Source of the DNA: Dehalococcoidia bacterium
GTDB taxonomy: Bacteria; Chloroflexota; Dehalococcoidia; Lucifugimonadales; UBA3495
Length of the DNA: 64,000 nucleotides
Direction of reading: 5' to 3'
NCBI GenBank assembly: GCA_963665735.1
Contig: OY762444.1
Coordinates: forward strand, 2,025,828-2,089,827
The position numbers and the translations under genes were made by a program. Below the pieces are notes generated by a model, which was not told the origin of the DNA, searched no databases, and was given only the letters and a program-made list of their open reading frames with translations. Position 1 is the stretch's first letter. The number at the start of each line of letters is the position of its first letter. Shown piece by piece: positions 6,529 to 21,220 of the stretch.

Positions 6529-8274
6529 ACGGCGACGCAGGTTGTTCAGAATCCACGCTATGAGGCGGACGAAAAGCCGCCCTTCCTGACCTCGCTGGGG
6601 CTGGGGTTGCAGTTCAGCATGATTGCCTCGGCGACGCTGCTGGTGACGCCGGTTATCGTCGCCAATGCGTCGGGGCTGGGCGAGTCCCAATTGACCTGGA
6701 TGGTGTTCGCCTCGCTGCTGGTGGTGGGGGTGTCCACGCTGTTGCAGGTGCGCCGGCTGGGGCCGGTGGGGGCCGGCGCGGTGCTGCCCCTGTTCACCGC
6801 CGCTTTCTCCATTCCCTTCTGCATCACGGCGTTGGTGGACGGGGGGCCGGCGACGCTGACGACGTTGATTCTGGTGACGGGAATAATCCAGGTGATTATT
6901 TCCCGGTGGCTGTTCATTCTGCGGCGAATCGTGACGCCGGTGGTGGGCGGCACGGTGATGATGATTCTATCCATCACGCTGGCGTCGGTGGTTTTCGGGC
7001 TGCTGGATGAGGCGTCGCAGTCGGAGCCGGTGGCGGCGCCGCTGACGGCGCTGGTTACGCTGGTGGTGGTGGGAGCGCTGACGCTGCGGGGCACCGCGGC
7101 ACTGCGGCTGTGGGCGCCGGTGATTGGCATAACCGTGGGGTGCGTGGTGGCCGCCGGGTTCGGCATTTATGACTTGCAACGGGCGATACAAGCGCCGTGG
7201 GTGGGAGTTCCCCGGGAATGGCCGGGGTTGGGGGTGGATTTCGGGGTAGGTTTCTGGACGCTGCTGCCGTCGTTCCTGTTTCTGGGGGTGATTAACTCGA
7301 TTCAGGCCAACGGGGAGGCCATCGCGCAACAACGGGTGGCCCGGCGGGAACCGCAAGCGGTGGACTTCCGCCAGGTGCAGGGAACGATGGCCGGCGCCGG
7401 GGTGGGCAACCTGCTGGCCGCCGTTGCCGGGGCGGTGCCCAACGTCATCAATCCGGGAATCGTGTCGTTTACGCAGATAACCGGGGTGGCGGCCCGGCGG
7501 GTGGGTTACTGCATCGGGTTCACGTTCATCGTGGTGGCGTTTTTGCCCAAGTTGTCGGGATTCCTCAGCACCATACCGGGGCCGGTGATGACGGGATACC
7601 TAATCATGGTGACGGGGACTCTTTTCGCGGAGGGGGCGCGGACGGTCATACAGACGGAGCAGAATCGGCAGAAACTGACGGTGGCGGGGGTGGCTTTCTG
7701 GATTGGGGCGGCTTTCCAGTTCGGGTTGTTCAATATGCCGAACTTGCATCCGGTGTTGACGACGCTGCTGAAAAGCGGCATTACCACCGGGGGGGTGTTA
7801 GCGTTGGGGGCAGTGCTGTTCCTGGAGCTTACGGACAAACGGCGGATGCGTTTTGAGTCGCCGCTGCACATTGACGCCTTGCCGGAGTTGAACGAATTTA
7901 TCACCAAGTTCGCCAATAGCCGGGGGTGGGGCGACGCGATGAAAGACCGGCTGAGCGCGGTGGCGGAGGAAACGCTGTTGACGCTGGCCCCGCTGGACCT
8001 GGAGGCGGAGGACGATGGGGAAGAGGTGAACCGGCGGTTGGTGGTGGTGGCGTCCAGCGAGGGGGCGGTGGCGGACCTGGAATTTATCGGCGGGGGGAAC
8101 GACGCCAACCTGGAGGACCAAATCCAGCAACTACAGCAGCACGATCAGGAAACGCCGCTGGAGTATGAAATATCCCTGCGTCTGTTGCGGCAGTATGCCT
8201 CATCGGTGCAGCACCGGGTTTACCACGACACGGACATTATTACGCTGCGGGTGGGGCCGCCGGGGCCGCGGTAG
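6529..8274 (+). CDS. NCS2 (uracil/xanthine) permease fused to a C-terminal degenerate HATPase_c/RsbW-like domain
   Basis: Many TM helices with NCS2 motifs (P.V.GTV, TGVAARRVG, IPGPV..G) and a ~140 aa soluble tail. The frame extends upstream of 6607 to ACG 6529 behind GGAGG and includes YEADEKPP. Confidence 0.85.
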   Translation, partial: TATQVVQNPRYEADEKPPFLTSLGLGLQFSMIASATLLVTPVIVANASGLGESQLTWMVFASLLVVGVSTLLQVRRLGPVGAGAVLPLFTAAFSIPFCITALVDGGPATLTTLILVTGIIQVIISRWLFILRRIVTPVVGGTVMMILSITLASVVFGLLDEASQSEPVAAPLTALVTLVVVGALTLRGTAALRLWAPVIGITVGCVVAAGFGIYDLQRAIQAPWVGVPREWPGLGVDFGVGFWTLLPSFLFLGVINSIQANGEAIAQQRVARREPQAVDFRQVQGTMAGAGVGNLLAAVAGAVPNVINPGIVSFTQITGVAARRVGYCIGFTFIVVAFLPKLSGFLSTIPGPVMTGYLIMVTGTLFAEGARTVIQTEQNRQKLTVAGVAFWIGAAFQFGLFNMPNLHPVLTTLLKSGITTGGVLALGAVLFLELTDKRRMRFESPLHIDALPELNEFITKFANSRGWGDAMKDRLSAVAEETLLTLAPLDLEAEDDGEEVNRRLVVVASSEGAVADLEFIGGGNDANLEDQIQQLQQHDQETPLEYEISLRLLRQYASSVQHRVYHDTDIITLRVGPPGPR

Positions 8275-12014: not shown

Positions 12015-13763
12015 CTACTGGTCCACGTGGCAACTGATGATGTCTATTCCGTGATACTTGCGGTGGTGCACCGATGAGGCGTAGTGGCGGAGGATGCGGA
12101 TGGACAATTCCTGTTCGTCTGCCAGCGACTGGTCCTGGCCCAGATAGGCCACCCGGTTCTCGATATTCCCCTGGATGGCGTCGCCGGAAGCGACTACGAT
12201 TTCAAGCTCCGCGGAGGCACCGTCGGGGCGAATGGTGGCAACCAACCGGCGCTTTTGCTCTACAGGGCCGGCGCTGTCCTGGTCAATCTCTTCATTGAGC
12301 AGGCTAAGTATGACCTCTTCTCCCACCAGGCGCAGCCGGTCTTTCCCGGCCTCCGGCCAGGAATGTTTGTCGGCGAACCGGCTGAGGAAATCGTCCATGT
12401 CGTTCAGGGAGGACTCGGACAGGTCAATCTGGAGCTTGCTGGCGCGAAAACCGGATAATTCGGTGAATGCGGTCATGGCCATGGCCGCCATTCCGCCCAT
12501 GACGATGGGACTGCCGGCCAGATGACTGGCAACCCCATCGAAGAATCCGCTCAAAGCCCCGGCGGACAGGCCCAACACCATAGAGACCCCGGCGATGGCC
12601 GTCTTCTTCTGGTCAACCTGGCCGGCAAAGACCGTTTTCGCGCCCTCGATAAAAAGATTGCCGAAGATGATGACGTAAACCGCGCTAACCACCGGGCTGG
12701 GAATGGCGACCAATACGGCCAGCAGCTTGGAAAAGAAGGCGACGGCTATGGTCAACAGTCCCAGATATATCCCGACGCTCCTGGCGGCGATGCCGTTAAA
12801 GCCGATATAGACCACGGTGGTTGACCAGGGCGCGGCGACAGTCAAGGTTCCCAGGAGGCCGGAAAGCAAGGTTCCCACGCCGTAAACATTCATGCCCCCC
12901 TGCACCGCGCGGAAGTCAACGGCGGATTGATTGCGGTAGGAGGCGTGGTAAATTACCGATAAGTCGCCCACCGCTTTCATAAAGGCGGTGAGATTCACGA
13001 ACACAAAGACCGGGAGCAACGCCCAGAACTCCGGGCCAAAGGCCAGGTCCAGCCCCGGCCACCCGGTTTGGGGCAGGCGCAGCCACGGAGTATCAAATAT
13101 GATGCCAGCGTCGTAACTGCCCAGGGGCATGGCTACAATCAGACCGACGGCTACGGTGACGGGCAAAATCCACATCCGCCAGGCCGGTCTTTCGTGCAGG
13201 GATATGAAGATACCGGCGGCCAAAGCCGCTATTCCCGGGGCCAGGAAAAGGGCCGTTGATTGGCCTTCCGCCGGAACGACGGCCCGGTTGATGATGAAAG
13301 GCACCGCCGAAACCGCCACCAGCATTACCACTATGCCGCTGACCGTCTGGGTAAATATGCGGCGCAGGGAGGCCAGGCGCAGGGTCAAAACGGATTGAAC
13401 CAGGGTAGAGGCCACCACCAGGCTGGCCAGCAAACCGGGGCCTCCGGCGTGGAGGGCCAAGGCGCAAACCGCCAGGAAGGGGACATTGAAGTTGGCGACA
13501 ACTAGGCCGCCGGAGCCGAAATGCCGCAGCCGGAGGGTTTGCAGAATCATGCTGGCCCCGGTGACTGCCAGCGCCGTAAATGTCACCCATGACAGATAGG
13601 CTTCGGACTCGCCGGAGGCCCGCACCACCAGCGCGGTCAGCATGATGAGGCCGATGGTGTTGGGTATGAATATCTGGACAGCCGAGGCTATCGCCAGCAG
13701 CGGCGGACACTTCTCATCCGGTTGGTACTGGATTCCGGGGCGTCGGTGGGCTTTTCCGAACAT
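12015..13763 (-). CDS. NCS2 permease with C-terminal degenerate HATPase_c/RsbW-like domain (paralog of 6529-8274)
   Basis: YQPDEK.PP N-terminus, VDFR..QG, AARSVG, IPSPV; tail KDRLRLVGEE...ELSIRILRHYASSV.HR.YH..DII. Confidence 0.85.
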   Translation of the reverse strand: MFGKAHRRPGIQYQPDEKCPPLLAIASAVQIFIPNTIGLIMLTALVVRASGESEAYLSWVTFTALAVTGASMILQTLRLRHFGSGGLVVANFNVPFLAVCALALHAGGPGLLASLVVASTLVQSVLTLRLASLRRIFTQTVSGIVVMLVAVSAVPFIINRAVVPAEGQSTALFLAPGIAALAAGIFISLHERPAWRMWILPVTVAVGLIVAMPLGSYDAGIIFDTPWLRLPQTGWPGLDLAFGPEFWALLPVFVFVNLTAFMKAVGDLSVIYHASYRNQSAVDFRAVQGGMNVYGVGTLLSGLLGTLTVAAPWSTTVVYIGFNGIAARSVGIYLGLLTIAVAFFSKLLAVLVAIPSPVVSAVYVIIFGNLFIEGAKTVFAGQVDQKKTAIAGVSMVLGLSAGALSGFFDGVASHLAGSPIVMGGMAAMAMTAFTELSGFRASKLQIDLSESSLNDMDDFLSRFADKHSWPEAGKDRLRLVGEEVILSLLNEEIDQDSAGPVEQKRRLVATIRPDGASAELEIVVASGDAIQGNIENRVAYLGQDQSLADEQELSIRILRHYASSVHHRKYHGIDIISCHVDQ

Positions 13764-14131
13764 TTAGATAAAACCCCAAGCCGCGATAGCGCGACGATAA
13801 ATCGCCGCTGCCGGCTGCACTGGGGGGATTTTATCATCATCCACCATTCACGCGGGGATAAGTCCGCCGAATAGGTCAGGGCCTTTCGATTGTTGCAGTG
13901 TTCACCCCAATGTTACCTTGAACGAAGTGAAGGGTCTAACATTCCAAGGGTAAGGCGACCCCTTCGACTATGCTCAGGACAGGGTTGGCGAAGGCAAGAA
14001 TTTTAGATTCTTCGCTATGCTCAGAATAGCATGGGGATTGCTTAGAATGACATACTTGGGACATTGACCGAAAATCAAAAAACCCTGCTCCGAATAGATG
14101 CACTAGAAATCATTTTATGGACATGATACCG

Positions 14132-14149
14132 TGTATTAAGGGCAATACA
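14132..14149. promoter_or_regulatory. Putative operator, TGTATT-N6-AATACA
   Basis: Perfect 6-6-6 dyad in the AT-rich divergent intergenic region, ~50 nt upstream of 14201. Confidence 0.35.
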
Positions 14150-14200
14150 TTAGTCCCCGTTGAATCAACCAGGGGACACCAAACGGGAGGGGTCTGATTC

Positions 14201-17200
14201 ATGTTGCGAACCGGGCGAGGGCACAAAGCGGGGGCCAACGGCACAAAACGGAATAACCGGCGAGCGCCGGCCGGGGTCAGAGCATTGTTCTTGTTTCTGT
14301 TGGCGGCTTCCTTTGCGGCCTTGGTAGCTGCCTGCGGGGAAGACCCTTCGCCAACGGCAGTCCCCGCGCCAACCGCGGCCCCGCAGCCGGCGCCGGCCGC
14401 TACTACGGCTCCGCAACCGACGCCAACGGCTACGACAGCCCCGCAACCGACGCCCGCGCCCGCGCCTGCGCCGACGGCCACCCCGCAACCGACTCCGGCG
14501 CCCACGGCCACCCCGACTCCGGAGCCGACGCCGATGCCAGCGCCTACGCCGGCGCCCGAACCTCAACCTGACGAGACGGAAGCCGAGGCCGCCACCCGCG
14601 CCTATATAACGAGCGCCATTGAATACTACGGAGAGAACGGGCCGGACGCCACCGTCGAGTTCTACAAGTCTCCGGCGGGTATCCAGAACGGGCTGATGCT
14701 GACCCTCGTGGACAAATCCGAAGGCAAATTGCTGATTTACCCAACCCTTCCCTCTCTGGAAGGCCAATACGTTGGCCCAGGCTCGTCATTTCCCGGCCTC
14801 GCGGGGTTGCTGAGAGCTGCCTCCGCGGAGGGTTACTGGACTAATTTTCGGAGCATAAACCCGGTCACCAAGCAGGAAGAACCACGGCGCATTTTGGCCG
14901 TGCTTCACGATGGCCTGGTGTTCTTTGCCAGCCATTCGATCCTGACGGAGGATGTAGCGGATTCCACCCAGGAATACGTGGAAAAGGCCATAGCCAGGTA
15001 CGAAAAGGACGAGCTGGAGGCGACCATCGAGCATTACAACAGCCTGGACAGCCTGGACGGGCAGTTCTACCTGTTCCTTATCGGCGCCGACGACAACTAC
15101 CTGGCTCATCCCATCTTTCCCCACCTCATCGGGTCTGACATCAAGGACGTGGTGGGTTCCGACGGGCAGGAATTGGGCCAGGAGATAGCCGAGGCCACCG
15201 AAGAAGGCATCTGGGTGGAATACCTGTGGCCCCATCCCGTATCGCGGAAGGAGCAACAAAAGGTCACTTGGGCCGTCCGCCACGACGGGCTGATATTCGC
15301 CTCCGGTTATTACGCCGGCGGCCTCGAGGTCGAGGTTCCGCCCTGGCAGGACGCCGACCCCCGGGAATACACCGTCCAGTACGTGAACCGGGCCATTGAG
15401 CGTTACGAGCAGGACGGGCTGGAATCCATGCTCAACTACTACAACAGCGTCGCCAGCTTTGAAGGCGAATGGTATCTCTTCGCCACAGACGAAAACGACA
15501 TCTATCACGTCCATCCCCTGCTGCCCGGGCTGATAGGGAAGGACATCAAGGACGTGGTGGGTTCGGACGGTTACGAATTAGGCAAGGAACTGGCCAAGGC
15601 CACCGAGGAAGGCGTTTGGGTGGAATACCTGTGGCCGCACCCGGTAACGCTGAAAGAGGTTCCCAAGGTGGGTTACGCGGTGCGCCGAGACGGGATGCTC
15701 TTCGCCTCCGGCTACTACGTTCAGGTTGACGACCCGCCGGCCCATACCCAAGCCTACGTGCAACAAGCTATCGAGTACTACCAGGCCAACGGGCTGGAAT
15801 CCACCATCGCCCATTACAACAGCCAGGACAGCGTTGACGGCCAGTGGAGCTTGACCCTGGCGGATAAGAAGGACATCGTGCGCGTCGCTATCCTGACGCC
15901 CGGACTGGTAGGCACCGACTTGAAAGACCTGGGCGCGGGGGCGATTCGTCAGATTGGCAAAGAATTCGCGGCGGCCACCGAGAGGGGCCGCTGGGTGAGC
16001 CACGTCTTCCCCAACATACGGTCTTCGGAGACCCTGTACGCCCATAATTGGGTCATCCGCCACGATGGGCTGCTTTTCATGTCGCGCTACTACGACGACA
16101 GTCCGGAAGTGCCGGACACGGCGAAGACTGATGACGCGCTGACGCTGGCCTACGTTCAAAAGGCGATAGGTCGGTACGAGAGGGAAGGGCTGGATGCGAC
16201 GGTCGCCTACTACAACAGCGAAGAGAGCGTGGAGGGCGAGCGTGGACTCCGAATCTACGACGCCGCAACCCAGACGATGCTGGCGTCTGGGTTGTTCCCG
16301 GTGGAAAGAGGAGAGAAACGTCTCTCTATCGGTTCCCTGTCCGAGCTGGTGAAATTCTTCGAGGGGGCAACTGAGGAGGCGCGGTGGTTGGATAAAGTGG
16401 GCCACGACAGGAATTTCCAAGATGTTCCCAAGCGTGTAGTCGCGATACTTCATGACGGGCTGGTGTTCTCCGCCAGCCACGTTACCCTCCAGGAAAATGT
16501 GGCTGAGGCCACCAAGCATTACGTGAGCAGGGCGATAGCCCGCTACGACGAAGAGGGACTGGACGCGACAGTGGCCCATTTCAACAGCCAGGAAAGCCTA
16601 GATGGGAACTTCTATCTGTTCCTCATCGGGGCGGACGACATCTACGTTGCCCATCCGATATTCCCACACCTGATAGGAACGGACATAAAGGACGTGGTGG
16701 GTTCGGACGGGCAGGAACTGGGCAAGGAGATAGCGCAGGCGACCGAGGACGGGATATGGGTTGAGTACCTATGGCCCAACCCTATTACACGGATTGAGGA
16801 GTACAAGACCACCTGGGCTATCCGGCACAACGGGCTGATATTCGCGTCGGGCTACTACACGGCCGGGGATGAGGTATTGGAGACGCCGTGGAAGGATGCC
16901 GACCCGCGCGAGTACACAGTGGATTACGTGGACCGCGCTATCGCTCGGTACGAGAGGGACGGTCCGGACGCGATGAAGGCGTACTACAACAGCGTGGCGA
17001 GTTTTGAGGGCCAGTGGTATCTGTTCGCGATGGACGAGAACGACATATACATCGTTCATTCGCTGCTTCCGCGCCTGATAGGAACGGACATAAAGGACGT
17101 GGTGGGTTCGGACGGGTATGAGTTGGGCAAGGAGATAGCGAAGGCGACGGAGGAGGGCATCTGGGTGGAATATCTGTGGCCCCATCCGGTGACGCTTAGG

Positions 17201-17653
17201 GACGCTCCCAAGGTTGGGTACGCCAAACGGCACGACGGCATGATATTCGCTTCGGGCTACTATCCGGAAGTCTCAGATCCCAGGGCGTACACCGAAGATT
17301 ACGTGCAGACGGCGATAGACTACTACGAGGCGAATGGGCTGGATGCGACGGTCGCCTACTACAACAGTCAGGAAAGCGTGGATGGACAGTGGTACCTGAT
17401 CCTCGCGGACGGCTCGGACGGCATCGGCTTGGTACATCCGATTACGTCCATAGCAGTTGGCAAAGACATCAGGATTCTCAAGGGCTTCATAGCTGGAGAG
17501 CCAGTCGGCGAGTTGATTTTCAACGCGCCAGAGGAAGGACACTGGTTCGAATTCCTGTTCGCTCTCTCCAACACGTCGGAGATATTGACCAAGCATATGT
17601 GGTCAATCCGACACGCCGGGCTGATATTCACGTCGGGCTACTACGCCGACTAG
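14201..17653 (+). CDS. Lipoprotein with Pro/Thr/Ala linker and eight tandem single-Cache domains
   Basis: Lipobox LVAAC; PTA repeats; eight units of YV..AI..Y...G / YLF....D....HP / G.WVEY.WP.P / HDG..F.SGYY. Confidence 0.9.
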   Translation: MLRTGRGHKAGANGTKRNNRRAPAGVRALFLFLLAASFAALVAACGEDPSPTAVPAPTAAPQPAPAATTAPQPTPTATTAPQPTPAPAPAPTATPQPTPAPTATPTPEPTPMPAPTPAPEPQPDETEAEAATRAYITSAIEYYGENGPDATVEFYKSPAGIQNGLMLTLVDKSEGKLLIYPTLPSLEGQYVGPGSSFPGLAGLLRAASAEGYWTNFRSINPVTKQEEPRRILAVLHDGLVFFASHSILTEDVADSTQEYVEKAIARYEKDELEATIEHYNSLDSLDGQFYLFLIGADDNYLAHPIFPHLIGSDIKDVVGSDGQELGQEIAEATEEGIWVEYLWPHPVSRKEQQKVTWAVRHDGLIFASGYYAGGLEVEVPPWQDADPREYTVQYVNRAIERYEQDGLESMLNYYNSVASFEGEWYLFATDENDIYHVHPLLPGLIGKDIKDVVGSDGYELGKELAKATEEGVWVEYLWPHPVTLKEVPKVGYAVRRDGMLFASGYYVQVDDPPAHTQAYVQQAIEYYQANGLESTIAHYNSQDSVDGQWSLTLADKKDIVRVAILTPGLVGTDLKDLGAGAIRQIGKEFAAATERGRWVSHVFPNIRSSETLYAHNWVIRHDGLLFMSRYYDDSPEVPDTAKTDDALTLAYVQKAIGRYEREGLDATVAYYNSEESVEGERGLRIYDAATQTMLASGLFPVERGEKRLSIGSLSELVKFFEGATEEARWLDKVGHDRNFQDVPKRVVAILHDGLVFSASHVTLQENVAEATKHYVSRAIARYDEEGLDATVAHFNSQESLDGNFYLFLIGADDIYVAHPIFPHLIGTDIKDVVGSDGQELGKEIAQATEDGIWVEYLWPNPITRIEEYKTTWAIRHNGLIFASGYYTAGDEVLETPWKDADPREYTVDYVDRAIARYERDGPDAMKAYYNSVASFEGQWYLFAMDENDIYIVHSLLPRLIGTDIKDVVGSDGYELGKEIAKATEEGIWVEYLWPHPVTLRDAPKVGYAKRHDGMIFASGYYPEVSDPRAYTEDYVQTAIDYYEANGLDATVAYYNSQESVDGQWYLILADGSDGIGLVHPITSIAVGKDIRILKGFIAGEPVGELIFNAPEEGHWFEFLFALSNTSEILTKHMWSIRHAGLIFTSGYYAD

Positions 17654-18074
17654 CCCGGCGTTCCCGACTCTGCCAACTGACCGATGACGCCCTGACCCGC
17701 GCCGGCGCGGGTCAGGGGTTTAGGTTGAATCGTTGGCGGTTTGGCGGTGGCGGCATGGTTCCGCCGCAACCCCGCCCGTGGAATGGGCGGGGTTTTGATT
17801 TTCCGTCCACCCGTGAATATGTAATTCTGAGCAAAGCGAAGAATCTAAAATTCTTGCCTTCGACAACGCGGCCTTGCCAGAATGATTCTAGACCCTTCAC
17901 TTCGTTCAGGGTGACATGGATGGGGTTGAGGGAAACAATAAAAACGACACTGCTGGAATGAGGGAGAGGATGGAATCGTCCGGCGGACAAAGGTAGAATA
18001 GCCGCCGCCAACAAGGGTATATTATCCGGGGCAATTGCGGGAGGCCGGCCCCGCAATGGTGGGATTGCGCCGGG

Positions 18075-19016
18075 TTGGGCCGGGCCGAATCTGGACAAGG
18101 AACGCGGCAGCCACAGTTGGACGCGATAGAAAACACTACCGGGGAAGTTGGAAGGGGAAACCCGCCGGGGCCGCAATCGGGGGCGTGGCGGGTGGTGCGT
18201 TTTTGCCGGAGGGTGGTAAAGGCGCATTTCTTCGAGTGGACGATAATCGGGGTTATCCTGGCCAACAGCGTGCTGCTGGGGATGGGAACGTCGGTTTACC
18301 TGGAGGAACACTACGGCAACTGGCTGCACCTGGGTAACCAGGTGGCGCTGGCGATTTTCATCATCGAAGCGGTCTTGAAGATTACCGCCGTGGCGCCCCG
18401 GATAGACCGCTACTTCAAGGACGGCTGGAACCTTTTCGACTTCGCGATTATCGTGTTTGCCCTGGTGCCGATGACCGGGCAGTTCGCGATGATTGCGCGG
18501 CTGGCGCGGCTGCTGCGGGTCTTGCGGCTCATATCCGCCATCAAGGAACTGCGGCTTATCGTCACGGCGTTGGTGCGCTCCATTCCCAGCGTGGGCCACG
18601 TGATGATGCTGATGGGCATTATCGTTTACATTTATGCCATCGTGGGGTATCACCTGTTCCACCAGCACGACCCGGACAACTGGCGCACCCTGGGGGTTTC
18701 GGTGCTGACGCTGTTCAACATCATTACGCTGGAAGGGTGGACGGAGGTGATGCGGAAGGCGATGGAGTTGAATCCGCTGGCCTGGATTTACTTCGTCAGC
18801 TTTGTGGTTGTCGGCACTTTCGTGGCGATAAATATGTTCATCGCCGTAATCATCAACAACCTGGACGAGGCCAAGGCGGAGCGTCTGCGGGATTTGCAGA
18901 CGCCGCCCTCGCAGGAAGAGCTGCTGCGGGAGATACGGTCGGCGCGGGAGGCATTGCGACGGCTGGAGGAACGGCTGGACAACGAAGACCGTCCGCAAAC
19001 CGGGGCCGGGGGTTGA
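18075..19016 (+). CDS. Voltage-gated cation channel (BacNav/Cav family); true start may be downstream
   Basis: YFKDGWNLFDF, S4 RLARLLRVLR, filter TLEGW, S6 N.FIAVII and C-terminal coiled coil. Confidence 0.92.
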   Translation: MGRAESGQGTRQPQLDAIENTTGEVGRGNPPGPQSGAWRVVRFCRRVVKAHFFEWTIIGVILANSVLLGMGTSVYLEEHYGNWLHLGNQVALAIFIIEAVLKITAVAPRIDRYFKDGWNLFDFAIIVFALVPMTGQFAMIARLARLLRVLRLISAIKELRLIVTALVRSIPSVGHVMMLMGIIVYIYAIVGYHLFHQHDPDNWRTLGVSVLTLFNIITLEGWTEVMRKAMELNPLAWIYFVSFVVVGTFVAINMFIAVIINNLDEAKAERLRDLQTPPSQEELLREIRSAREALRRLEERLDNEDRPQTGAGG

Positions 19017-19093
19017 CCGCCGTTGGGTGGCCGGGGCTGATATACTCTTGGGGGCAACTAACGGCTACGGCGGACGCGGCAAGGGCAAAGGCT

Positions 19094-20029
19094 ATGCAGG
19101 GACAAATCGCAATTCCCAAATGGGCCAGTTACCCTTTCATGTTGGCGGCGGTTCTGGATGGAACGCAGGACTACCGCTGGCGTCGGTGGCGCGACGGATG
19201 GTTTTCGGGCGTGCTGGCAGGGAACCTGATACACCTGCGGCAGACCGGGGACGTTCTGGAGTACCGGGCCAACGCTGATTTGGACGACCTGCTGCACGGC
19301 TATTTCCGGTTGGACGATGATATTGACGCCATTTACAACGAAATATCGGAGCGGGATGAGTATGTTGGGCGCCTGGTGCGAAAATATCCCAACTTCCGCC
19401 TGCTTAGGCAGCCTGACCCGTGGGAGTGTGTCGTTTCTTACATTTGCGCGGCCAACAACTCCATTGAGCGCATTGGAGCGATTGTCGAAAAGGTAGCTGA
19501 GACTCTGGGCCAGCCGATTGAGTTGGATGGGGAAGTCCGGCGCACTTTCCCAACGGCTGAAATGGTGGTTGACGCCGGGGTGGAGCCGTTGAGGGAGTTG
19601 CGGCTGGGACTTAGCCGACATGACAAGATAATGGCCGCCGCCCAGCGAGTCTTGGACGGAAGGTTGAACCTGCCTCACCTGGCGCAACCGGAAGCCTCCT
19701 ACGCCGAGGCAAAGGGCCGGTTGATAGAATGTGACGGAATCGGGGAAAAGATTGCGGACTGCATCGCGTTATTTTCGCTGGGCAAGACGGAAGCCTTCCC
19801 GGTGGATGTTCATGTGGGTAGAGCGGTGGAAGGTCGTTTATCCTCCGATAAGCCAACCACAAGGACGCAAAGGGTAAGCCAAGCGCGGCAACTTTTCGGG
19901 AAGTACGCTGGCTACGCCAACCAGTTTCTATTTCAGGGGCAACGGGATGAGGGTGGCGCTCAATCCCAAGGCGTTGAAAATGCCCGCCCCGCTGCGGTTA
20001 CTGACCGAAAGACAGGGAGAGCGGACCTA
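19094..20029 (+). CDS. 8-oxoguanine DNA glycosylase (OGG1/HhH-GPD) domain, reading in frame into the next gene
   Basis: LLRQPDPWECVVSYI, FPT, GIGEKIADC, AFPVDVH, YAGYANQFLF; no stop codon before 20030. Confidence 0.85.
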
Positions 20030-21220
20030 ATGCTGGAAATGCGGCCCATAACTCCGGGGGAGTTTGCGCAGTGGACCCGGGCCGAGGCGCGGGCCTACGG
20101 CAACCGGCTGAATGTTGACCCGGAGGTACTGCGGCCTCACTTCGATTTGGATCGTTCGATTGCGGTTTTCGACCGGGGGGGAATTGTTGGGGGCGCGCAT
20201 TCGCACTTGCAGGAAATTTCCGTTCCAGGCGGAACGGCGGCGGTGGCGGCGGTGGCCAATGTCGCCGTCCAGCCCACCCACCGGCGGCAGGGGATTATGA
20301 GCCGGATGATGCGCCACCAGATTAAGGATGTTTATCGGCGGGGTGAGCCGCTGGCGGCGTTGTTCGCATCGGAAAGCGGCATTTACGGACGGTTCGGCTA
20401 CGGCGTGGGGTCTTTCCGGGAGCAGTGGAGCATTGAACGGCAGCATACGGGATACGCCCGGCGATACCCGACTTCGGGGCGGTTCTTTTTCGTTGACCCG
20501 GCAGACTTGGCTGACGAACTTCCGCAGGTTTCCCGCCGGAGCACCGCCGGCCGTCCTGGAGTCATTGAAAAGCCCCTGGCGTTGTGGGAGCGGGAGTCCC
20601 AGGCCCCGGAGCACCGGCAAGGGGGGCGGGGCGGCTTGTTCTACGTGGCTTATGCGGAAGGCGGCCAGGTGGCGGGGTACGCCAAGTATCGCACCGATGG
20701 GGGGACGCTGACCGTCAATGAGTTGATGGCGACGACCACGGAGTCCTACGCGGCGTTGTGGCGGTTTTGCTTTGACGTTGACCTGGTTGCGACTACCGTT
20801 GCGGAGCGGCGTCCGGTGGATGACCCGCTGCCGTGGATGCTGGCCGACCCGCGGCGGCTGCAACGGTCAGTCCGCGACGGGATGTGGCTGCGGTTGGTTG
20901 ATGTGGCGGCGGCCCTGGAGTCGCGGCGTTACCTGGCCGAGGGTCGGCTGGTGTTGGAAGTAGAGGACGATGTATGTCCCTGGAACCAGGGGCGGTTGGC
21001 GTTGGAAGGTTCCACCGAAGGGGCCTTGTGCCGGAAGTCCGGGGCATCGGCGGACTTGGCGTTGGGGGTCGCCGCGCTGGCCGCGGCCTACCTGGGCGGC
21101 GCCAGTTTCACGACGCTGGGCCAAGCCGGGCTGGTGGAGGAACGCACGGACGGGGCGTTGTTGAAGGCTGACCGGATGTTTGCCACGCAACTGCAACCCT
21201 GGGCGCCCCATAATTTTTAG
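20030..21220 (+). CDS. Eis-family GNAT acetyltransferase with SCP2-like C-terminus
   Basis: VAVQPTHRRQG, AALFASE..IYGRFGYG, WLRLVDV..AL..R.Y, L...YLGG; own GGGAGA RBS and ATG. Confidence 0.9.
   Translation: MLEMRPITPGEFAQWTRAEARAYGNRLNVDPEVLRPHFDLDRSIAVFDRGGIVGGAHSHLQEISVPGGTAAVAAVANVAVQPTHRRQGIMSRMMRHQIKDVYRRGEPLAALFASESGIYGRFGYGVGSFREQWSIERQHTGYARRYPTSGRFFFVDPADLADELPQVSRRSTAGRPGVIEKPLALWERESQAPEHRQGGRGGLFYVAYAEGGQVAGYAKYRTDGGTLTVNELMATTTESYAALWRFCFDVDLVATTVAERRPVDDPLPWMLADPRRLQRSVRDGMWLRLVDVAAALESRRYLAEGRLVLEVEDDVCPWNQGRLALEGSTEGALCRKSGASADLALGVAALAAAYLGGASFTTLGQAGLVEERTDGALLKADRMFATQLQPWAPHNF

Follow-up and report, generated by a model that had tools for sequence, protein, structure and literature searches.

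What is the role of a protein that consists of eight Cache domains and lacks an output domain? The question is raised by an open reading frame (ORF) in a 64,000-nt stretch of a Dehalococcoidia bacterium genome (GCA_963665735.1, contig OY762444.1, positions 2,025,828–2,089,827 of the forward strand; hereafter, the window), for which a first-pass annotation, made from the sequence alone, had proposed a multivalent surface ligand scavenger. In prokaryotes, Cache domains count as the chief extracellular sensor modules, and in the accessible text of Upadhyay et al. (2016; PMC4822843), they are reported only in proteins with signalling output domains. The family described here departs from this sensor picture, comprising output-less, predicted lipid-anchored arrays of 4, 8, or 12 Cache domains that are strictly tied to one atypical NCS2-fold carrier with a tail predicted to be anti-sigma-factor-like. 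In a full-text search, with subscription journals and supplements outside its scope, neither output-less Cache arrays nor a Cache–NCS2 pairing turned up in any paper. We tentatively favor the reading of the window protein as a tethered, multivalent carboxylate-capture array that feeds the adjacent carrier, and hold it for possible rather than probable.

Architecture, pockets, and relatives of the Cache array

The single open frame at positions 14201–17653 (+ strand) encodes, by translation, a predicted lipoprotein of 1150 aa, in which a signal peptide and a Pro/Thr/Ala linker precede eight Cache domains of ~125 aa each and the stop codon (Table 1). The start at 14570 given by the first-pass annotation fits the beginning of the array (residue 127, nt 14579) but not that of the ORF, which opens 370 nt earlier; the extra 5′ stretch adds a lipobox signal peptide (..LVAAC, Cys45) and linker residues 46–126. 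The V-A-A-C at Cys45 satisfies the lipobox pattern [LVI][ASTVI][GAS]C, and the N-terminal signal peptide is the sole hydrophobic segment of the protein. A lipid anchor is plausible because the same genome encodes Lgt and LspA. The lipoprotein signal, the long linker, and the eight domains support the earlier suggestion of a multivalent, surface-exposed protein, and the sequence predicts that the array is lipid-anchored and exposed at the cell surface. At the other end, the C-terminus lies 2 residues past the last strand motif (..SGYYAD, then stop), so that the protein indeed ends right after its last domain. A GGGAGG ribosome-binding site is located 9 nt 5′ of the ATG, in a divergent intergenic region that gave no Rfam match to a riboswitch or other RNA at E-values up to 1.

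The first-pass annotation had read eight Cache domains in ABCD-ABCD order and had allowed for the case that the repeats do not match the Cache fold; on both counts, the Pfam sCache_2 model, profile–profile comparison, structure modelling, and structural Z-scores came out for Cache, well past anything that chance would give. The protein matches Pfam sCache_2 (PF17200) with an E-value of 3.1e-38 and 131.6 bits against a cut-off of 25, and the four matching stretches are D2, D3, D6, and D7. The family profiles of types A, B, C, and D align pairwise over their full length (hhalign probability 99.9–100%, E-values 1e-35 to 1e-62), and because these profiles join A and D to B/C, types A and D are considered to be Cache domains too. 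In an AlphaFold model of block 1, the element order helix-helix-strand-strand-helix-strand-strand-strand is common to all four domains; the model has a predicted local distance difference test score (pLDDT) of 80.7 and a predicted template-modelling score (pTM) of 0.49, at which the placement of the domains within it is unreliable. Single-domain structure matching, which covered types A, B, and C, gave Z-scores of 15.5–16.2 for the domain B model against 4K08, 2QHK, and 5G4Y (root-mean-square deviation, rmsd, 2.4–3.0 over 122–126 residues), which are also the nearest solved structures by sequence. The structural match of domain C had a Z-score of 11.8, and domain A matched Cache/PDC domains at about 10. 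A dCache_1 match remained below its cut-off (31.8 vs. 45 bits). Pfam matches to HTH_29, HTH_28, and HTH_23 were rejected as spurious, as no stretch passes alone and all map to the N-terminal helices of the Cache domains.

The eight domains derive from the duplication of a four-domain block, as the first-pass annotation had deduced from the pairing of domains 1/5, 2/6, 3/7, and 4/8. The identity matrix bears this out, with values of 33% for D1/D5, 70% for D2/D6, 79% for D3/D7, and 50% for D4/D8, each of which is the top off-diagonal entry of its row, and the two blocks are 58% identical overall. The motifs quoted earlier were also found, HDGLVF.ASH closing D1 and D5, and DADPREYTV...NSVASFEG.WYLF lying in D3 and D7. 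The junction between the blocks (16126/16127) is spanned with zero differences by contigs from three public runs, which may include the window's own sample; because these contigs bridge the junction, the duplication is not taken for an assembly artefact. In three metagenome runs, word depth was 10–80x higher over the B/C DNA (15070–15850 and 16640–17110) than over the rest of the gene, suggesting that many other community members carry near-identical B/C-coding sequence. Among the five runs listed, there was no RNA run.

Conservation is concentrated in the putative ligand pockets of types B and C. According to the accessible part of the PscD study (PMC5062169), the carboxylate is held in PscD by Tyr90, His103, Tyr143, and Lys156 between Trp92 and Trp145. 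In our alignment, D2, D3, D6, and D7 carry Tyr, His, Tyr, and Lys at these four positions, flanked by Phe and Trp, whereas in D1, D4, and D5 all four hydrogen-bonding residues are missing apart from one Lys in D5. The earlier statement that B and C types keep their motifs while A and D types have lost them thus holds for B and C and for D1, D4, and D5, but not for D8, which retains three of the four residues, Tyr, His, and Lys, and has Phe at position 143. Such a D-type domain is unusual, as Tyr occurs in 6, His in 2, and Lys in 2 of the 112 D-type domains of relatives. The four pocket residues are kept in 110–112 of the 118 B domains and 111–112 of the 115 C domains of relatives; A domains conserve Tyr, Gly, and Arg at three pocket positions, and D domains have Thr, Ala, Phe, and Ala. 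Mean pairwise identity across 61 single-block proteins is 83% for B, 86% for C, 62% for A, and 69% for D. Judged by this conservation, types B and C are the core of the block, and their pockets are predicted to be of the carboxylate type.

In fold, sequence family, and B/C pocket residues, the array is similar to the sCache_2 domains of chemoreceptors, i.e., PscD-SD (5G4Y/5G4Z), Adeh_3718 (4K08), and a V. parahaemolyticus methyl-accepting chemotaxis protein, or MCP (2QHK/4EXO). In contrast to these receptors, it lacks both the two flanking transmembrane helices and an MCP/kinase output, and carries eight domains in series on a predicted lipid anchor, half of them with remodelled pockets.

Is the missing output domain a property of the family or of this one gene? 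Relatives were found in 206 stretches of species-representative genomes, and 78 loci were kept for analysis, nearly all of them from metagenome-assembled genomes labelled Dehalococcoidia or Chloroflexota. These loci hold 86 related ORFs, including 60 with a single ABCD block, nine with ABCD-ABCD, four with three blocks, and 13 variants; 73 of the 86 carry a lipobox-like Cys, and the linkers range from 25 to 149 aa with a median of 64. All 86 stop at the last Cache domain. The absence of an output domain noted at first pass therefore stands, together with a negative result for continuation into transmembrane or signalling domains: no signalling output domain was found in these ORFs, in the Pfam annotation of the 120 homologues listed, or in the 28 long relatives scanned. 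The receptor architecture, with two transmembrane helices flanking the Cache domain and a cytoplasmic output domain after it, was encountered neither in the window protein nor in the 86 related ORFs. Because 60 of the 86 are single ABCD proteins that end at the same point, the lack of an output is considered a natural protein end and not a truncation.

The number of blocks has changed repeatedly. A block-level tree (FastTree, with Shimodaira–Hasegawa-like support only) shows several independent duplications, and the blocks of L061, L065, L072, and L019/L026 group within their own proteins, a pattern of recurrent duplication that fits selection on copy number. Block 1 of the window protein sits among single-block proteins (80% identity to that of L006), and block 2 forms a long branch with a best identity of 64%. 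The longest array seen is P0124, a 2099-aa lipoprotein whose only domains are 16 tandem B-like sCache_2 domains. A word search for relatives longer than 2013 aa returned none, which is a weak negative, as P0124 itself was yielded by the exhaustive profile search (203 clusters at E-values up to 1e-30).

In nine of the 28 long relatives scanned, the Cache domains are joined to extracellular modules, namely subtilase+PPC+RCC1, 5′-nucleotidase C, SLH, LRR, and Laminin_G_3+Ig. Among such module-fused relatives (P0181, P0239, P0251, P0198, P0136, P0128, P0158, and P0169), Cache occurs as an extracellular module outside signalling proteins. The genome of the window contains two more output-less Cache-only ORFs (Table 1), and neither of them adjoins a permease.

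Conserved pairing with an atypical NCS2-fold permease

The scavenger of the first-pass annotation was conceived as free-standing and cannot be kept as written, since the Cache gene and the gene of an atypical NCS2-fold permease together form a conserved two-gene module. An ortholog of this permease with at least 69% identity is the immediate neighbour of the Cache gene in 69 of the 78 loci. The remaining loci contain a 54% match (L059), a 34% paralog 3.2 kb away (L074), or no permease (seven loci, three of which are cut by contig ends and four of which have full flanks). The matches are divergent to the Cache gene in 62 cases, convergent in seven, and co-directional in two. A sample of 400 class genomes was also screened, with scoring limited to the three best candidates in each; the permease ortholog occurs in 24 genomes, the same 24 encode the ABCD ortholog at adjacent coordinates, and no genome has one without the other. 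The other neighbours in the window, GH15, a 255-aa ORF, the ion channel, OGG-GNAT, and PrpD, are each found beside the pair in 0 of the 78 loci. Clustering of the flanking ORFs gave no third conserved gene (regulator, enzyme, or STAS), the next cluster being an SSF symporter in 10 of the 78 loci.

A second pairing was found among paralogs. Here, the Cache-only protein is shorter, has a collagen-like linker, and is encoded 94–262 bp upstream of a permease paralog of ~40% identity on the same strand, in an operon-like arrangement seen in at least six genomes of the class and checked in three (L099, L100, and L101; Table 1). Therefore, the link between Cache protein and carrier arose or persisted more than once.

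The permease of the window matches Pfam Xan_ur_permease (PF00860) with an E-value of 4e-24, and its scores against NCBIfam equivalog and subfamily models are far under the cut-offs. Its family profile matches UapA at 3e-21 and UraA at 2e-13 to 4e-14. In the alignment, 'ACECIGD' of UapA corresponds to 'afvkavgd' of the permease consensus, and 'FAQNNVV' to 'paatvvy', so that the substrate-site residues of the nucleobase-ascorbate transporter (NAT) family, Glu in transmembrane helix 8 (TM8) and the Gln/Glu-Asn signature in TM10, are not kept. The corresponding TM8 Glu and TM10 Gln/Asn positions of UapA are those that we take to be its substrate-binding residues. The first-pass annotation had also listed nucleobases as possible ligands, an idea that finds no support in a permease without these residues and in intact pockets of the carboxylate type.

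Five permeases of this type are encoded in the genome of the window, and the Cache-paired one belongs to a separate ortholog group, which is 36–40% identical to the other four paralogs. A total of 85 positions are conserved among the orthologs of the paired permease and different in all four paralogs, and the carrier alignment showed no ortholog-specific extracellular insertion that could mark a docking site. One paralog lies within the window, 4 kb away at 6607–8274 (+); it is of the 580-aa type, 36% identical, has the same tail, and has no Cache neighbour. In L015, L028, L030, L031, and L039, a TGA occurs at codon 6–8 of the stretch that aligns with the window permease, and the true permease start is therefore probably a few codons past the first ATG. 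The permease gene of L020 (7184–8917) has an internal TAG at codon 382.

In type and size, the window permease resembles the SupE-type permeases of the sponge-symbiont 'sup'/'swf' polyketide clusters, which are NCS2-type proteins of ~560–580 aa. As in the 'sup' clusters, one permease paralog of the genome (3268115–3269842, G000:C1) adjoins a polyketide synthase gene, which encodes a KS-AT-DH protein of 1528 aa (3263129–3267715, −). The accessible portions of the SupE-permease literature searched mention neither a Cache partner nor the tail fold.

Uptake, signalling, and other readings of the pair

How might an output-less Cache array serve a carrier? In the reading that we favor, the eight-domain array would be lipid-anchored and wholly extracytoplasmic, held off the membrane by its flexible Pro/Thr-rich stalk, and would bind ligand on the outside for its partner, the divergently encoded NCS2-fold carrier. 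D2, D3, D6, D7, and probably D8 would bind the carboxylate of a small organic acid in the manner of sCache_2 chemoreceptor domains, and the faster-evolving, remodelled A and D domains may be spacers, and perhaps docking or second-ligand modules. Repeated binding and re-binding at the membrane may raise the local ligand concentration, and the ligand would be passed to the carrier for uptake. Multiplication of the ABCD block (x1, x2, and x3 in the family) would raise capacity and avidity. If the array does feed the carrier, the pair would represent a new class of binding-protein-assisted secondary transport built on a PAS-like fold.

Such a division of labour is known from the TRAP (DctPQM), TTT (TctABC), and TAXI systems, in which a secondary carrier, typically of organic acids, is paired with an extracytoplasmic binding protein that has a lipid anchor where the organism lacks an outer membrane. 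As in these systems, the gene of the binder is conserved beside that of the carrier. In contrast to their one-site Venus flytrap proteins, the array has a Cache/PAS-like fold and many sites, and unlike the operon-encoded DctQM/TctAB, the carrier is of the NCS2 fold with an RsbW-like tail and the two genes are mostly divergent. The only Pfam family found in the binder is Cache and the only one in the carrier is Xan_ur_permease, with neither DctP/TctC/TAXI nor DctQM/TctAB among them.

Several points weigh against uptake as the purpose of the pair. To our knowledge, the binding-protein-dependent secondary transporters described so far use one-site Venus flytrap proteins, and hand-over from a Cache domain to a carrier is without precedent. 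Nor does delivery require many sites in a row. The relatives fused to protease, nucleotidase, SLH, LRR, and lectin-like modules would fit a general surface binder equally well, and the RsbW-like tail predicted for the carrier would fit signalling at least as well. The usual gene arrangement is divergent and not an operon, so co-transcription is not implied, and four of the 78 loci (L054, L069, L070, and L076), all with full flanks, have no permease within about 6 kb. The four other permease paralogs in the genome of the window have no Cache neighbour, and the carrier type therefore works without a Cache partner. In addition, no Cache–permease fusion protein was found, the only longer permease relative being a ketosynthase–permease fusion, although this is weak evidence.

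The tail of the carrier leads to a different use of the array, in which it acts as a sensor in trans. The tail has no Pfam match. Its AlphaFold model (pLDDT 77.9, pTM 0.75) was compared with the Protein Data Bank (PDB) by Foldseek, and the matches were UsfX (8ih8_C, E-value 3e-7, TM-score 0.74), RsbW (6m37, TM-score 0.78–0.80), and SpoIIAB (1tid/1th8), with TM-scores ranging from 0.64 to 0.80 against these anti-sigma factors; an atlas gave a lead to HATPase_c_2. Under this alternative, the loaded Cache array would alter the cycle of the carrier, a transceptor, and the RsbW/UsfX-like tail would bind or release a STAS- or sigma-type partner, so that the pair either reports an external acid to a partner-switching network or has its uptake gated by that network. 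The predicted anti-sigma-like fold of the tail is consistent with this, as is its conservation across the orthologs and all four paralogs of the same genome, with 19 invariant columns. STAS proteins, three small ones among them, are encoded in the genome, far from the window. A published gene table for a sponge-symbiont cluster places a SupE-like permease next to the gene of an anti-anti-sigma factor (PMC3908369), and nearly all other known Cache domains serve as sensor inputs, as far as the accessible text of PMC4822843 goes. However, no STAS, sigma, or phosphatase gene was found in the window or conserved beside the pair in the 78 loci, and the tail is also present on paralogs without a Cache partner and is thus not specific to the pairing. 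Moreover, glycine-rich ATP-binding motifs are not visible in the tail alignment, which makes kinase activity doubtful, and a sensor needs no series of up to 12 domains. We consider signalling through the carrier the main rival of the uptake reading, though somewhat unlikely; if true, it would be a new sensor wiring. Whether the pair serves uptake or signalling, the answer would assign a role to a transporter family abundant among uncultured Dehalococcoidia/Chloroflexota and help to find out which dissolved organic acids are taken up by these bacteria.

Functional coupling between a Cache/PDC carboxylate sensor and a carboxylate carrier is known from the DcuS-DctA/DcuB and CitA-type systems, and the CitA and DcuS domains were structural matches at Z-scores of 9.6–10.1. 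In those systems, Cache is part of a kinase and the carrier is DctA/DcuB, whereas the window array is kinase-less and the only signalling-type module is located on the carrier. The calcium-channel auxiliary subunit α2δ is wholly extracellular and anchored by glycosylphosphatidylinositol. Like α2δ and Cachd1, the array would be a lipid-anchored extracellular multi-Cache protein without an output domain that serves a membrane transport protein. Both were among the top multi-domain Foldseek matches, domain by domain only (whole-chain TM-scores 0.13–0.16, rmsd >20 Å), and PDB titles indicate that one α2δ Cache pocket binds amino-acid-like carboxylates such as gabapentin. α2δ differs in being eukaryotic, in its dCache_1 modules and VWA domain, for which the array has no match, and in its channel partner. 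It is the nearest analogy in design and does not imply family membership. Extending this analogy, we can envisage, as a doubtful option, a three-layer 'sensing carrier' in which the Cache array reads an external acid and docks on the NCS2-fold carrier without a nucleobase site, a probably kinase-dead tail couples occupancy or transport to a STAS network, and the number of ABCD blocks (1, 2, or 3; up to 16 B-like domains) sets sensitivity and dynamic range. With just as little likelihood, this arrangement may be the prokaryotic counterpart of that of α2δ and its channel, with the output in trans, which would not have been described before.

Readings that leave the carrier aside fare worse. As a free-standing retention layer, the array would hold small acids for any transporter, and the pairing would reflect shared regulation or a shared substrate only. 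The multivalent build, the long flexible stalk, and the intact pockets would suit such a role, as would the other Cache-only proteins of the genome that have no permease neighbour and the 2099-aa relative with 16 B-like domains in a row. The co-occurrence in the 400-genome sample is strict, however, and adjacency survives three gene arrangements, which is tighter than a shared substrate alone usually gives, and this reading is accordingly held improbable. Least credible of all is a lectin-like adhesin or envelope binder that attaches by avidity to carboxylate-bearing polymers (acidic host-matrix or cell-wall glycans), as the domain number, varying from 4 to 16 as in adhesins, and the fusion of nine long relatives to modules typical of surface or secreted proteins are set against a B/C pocket that matches closed pockets for C2/C3 acids and the lack of any reason for pairing with one carrier.

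Features and surroundings of the Cache gene

Table 1. Coordinates of the Cache gene, its partner permease, and related features. Positions refer to the window unless a contig or locus is named.
Feature	Coordinates	Strand	Remarks
Permease, atypical NCS2-fold (SupE-like), 582 aa, divergent to Cache gene	12015..13763	−	Pfam Xan_ur_permease
Cytoplasmic C-terminal tail of permease, last 146 aa, predicted RsbW/SpoIIAB/UsfX-like fold	12018..12455	−	
Divergent intergenic region between permease and Cache gene, 437 bp	13764..14200		Holds a dispersed repeat copy and GGGAGG
Lipoprotein signal peptide (predicted)	14201..14335	+	Basic n-region, hydrophobic core, lipobox V-A-A-C with Cys45
Pro/Thr/Ala-rich linker, residues 46–126, ~80 aa	14336..14578	+	Degenerate ~30–42-nt repeats
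D1, type A, residues 127–250, carboxylate-pocket residues lost	14579..14950	+	Alignment, model, profiles
D2, type B sCache_2, residues 251–385, pocket Tyr/His/Tyr/Lys intact	14951..15355	+	Pfam, alignment, structure match
D3, type C sCache_2, residues 386–510, pocket Tyr/His/Tyr/Lys intact	15356..15730	+	Pfam, alignment, structure match
D4, type D, residues 511–642, pocket replaced by Ser/Ala/His/Ala	15731..16126	+	Alignment, model, profiles
D5, type A of second block, divergent, residues 643–765, pocket residues lost	16127..16495	+	Alignment
D6, type B, residues 766–900, pocket intact	16496..16900	+	Pfam, alignment
D7, type C, residues 901–1025, pocket intact	16901..17275	+	Pfam, alignment
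D8, type D, residues 1026–1150, Tyr/His/Lys of pocket retained, stop codon directly after	17276..17653	+	Alignment
Two strong terminator-like hairpins, 12-bp stems (17690–17717 and 17768–17794)	17690..17794	+	Close the transcription unit
Voltage-gated-type bacterial ion channel, directly downstream of Cache gene	18075–19016	+	Ion_trans, E-value 4e-51
Cache-only ORF, 512 aa, collagen-like linker, three domains	G000:C1:2781918–2783456	+	
Cache-only ORF, 297 aa, two domains	G000:C1:2299162–2300055	−	
Second Cache/permease pair, L099	2704–4578/809–2554	−	
Second Cache/permease pair, L100	2608–4203/769–2514	−	
Second Cache/permease pair, L101	1788–2867/3129–4880	+	

The Cache gene is flanked by two inverted copies of a dispersed repeat of ~150 nt (13880–14032 and 17819–17917), whose arms are complementary at 86% over 58 nt and at 93% over 29 nt. 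With blastn, the repeat has about 230 matches in the 3.9-Mb genome; its word depth in the metagenome runs is very high, and it looks like a miniature inverted-repeat transposable element (MITE) or a repetitive extragenic palindromic (REP) element. A mobile unit around the Cache gene was considered and rejected, as the inverted repeats are two copies of this genome-wide repeat.

The ion channel gene downstream of the Cache gene invites the α2δ analogy in a more literal form, and a functional link between the two was likewise rejected: the channel adjoins the Cache gene in 0 of the 78 loci, and its position in the window is considered coincidental. Further downstream, a single frame at 18737–21220 (+) joins OGG_N and HhH-GPD (8-oxoguanine glycosylase) to an Eis-like GNAT/SCP2 acetyltransferase; its true start is probably later, because the listed start overlaps the channel gene.

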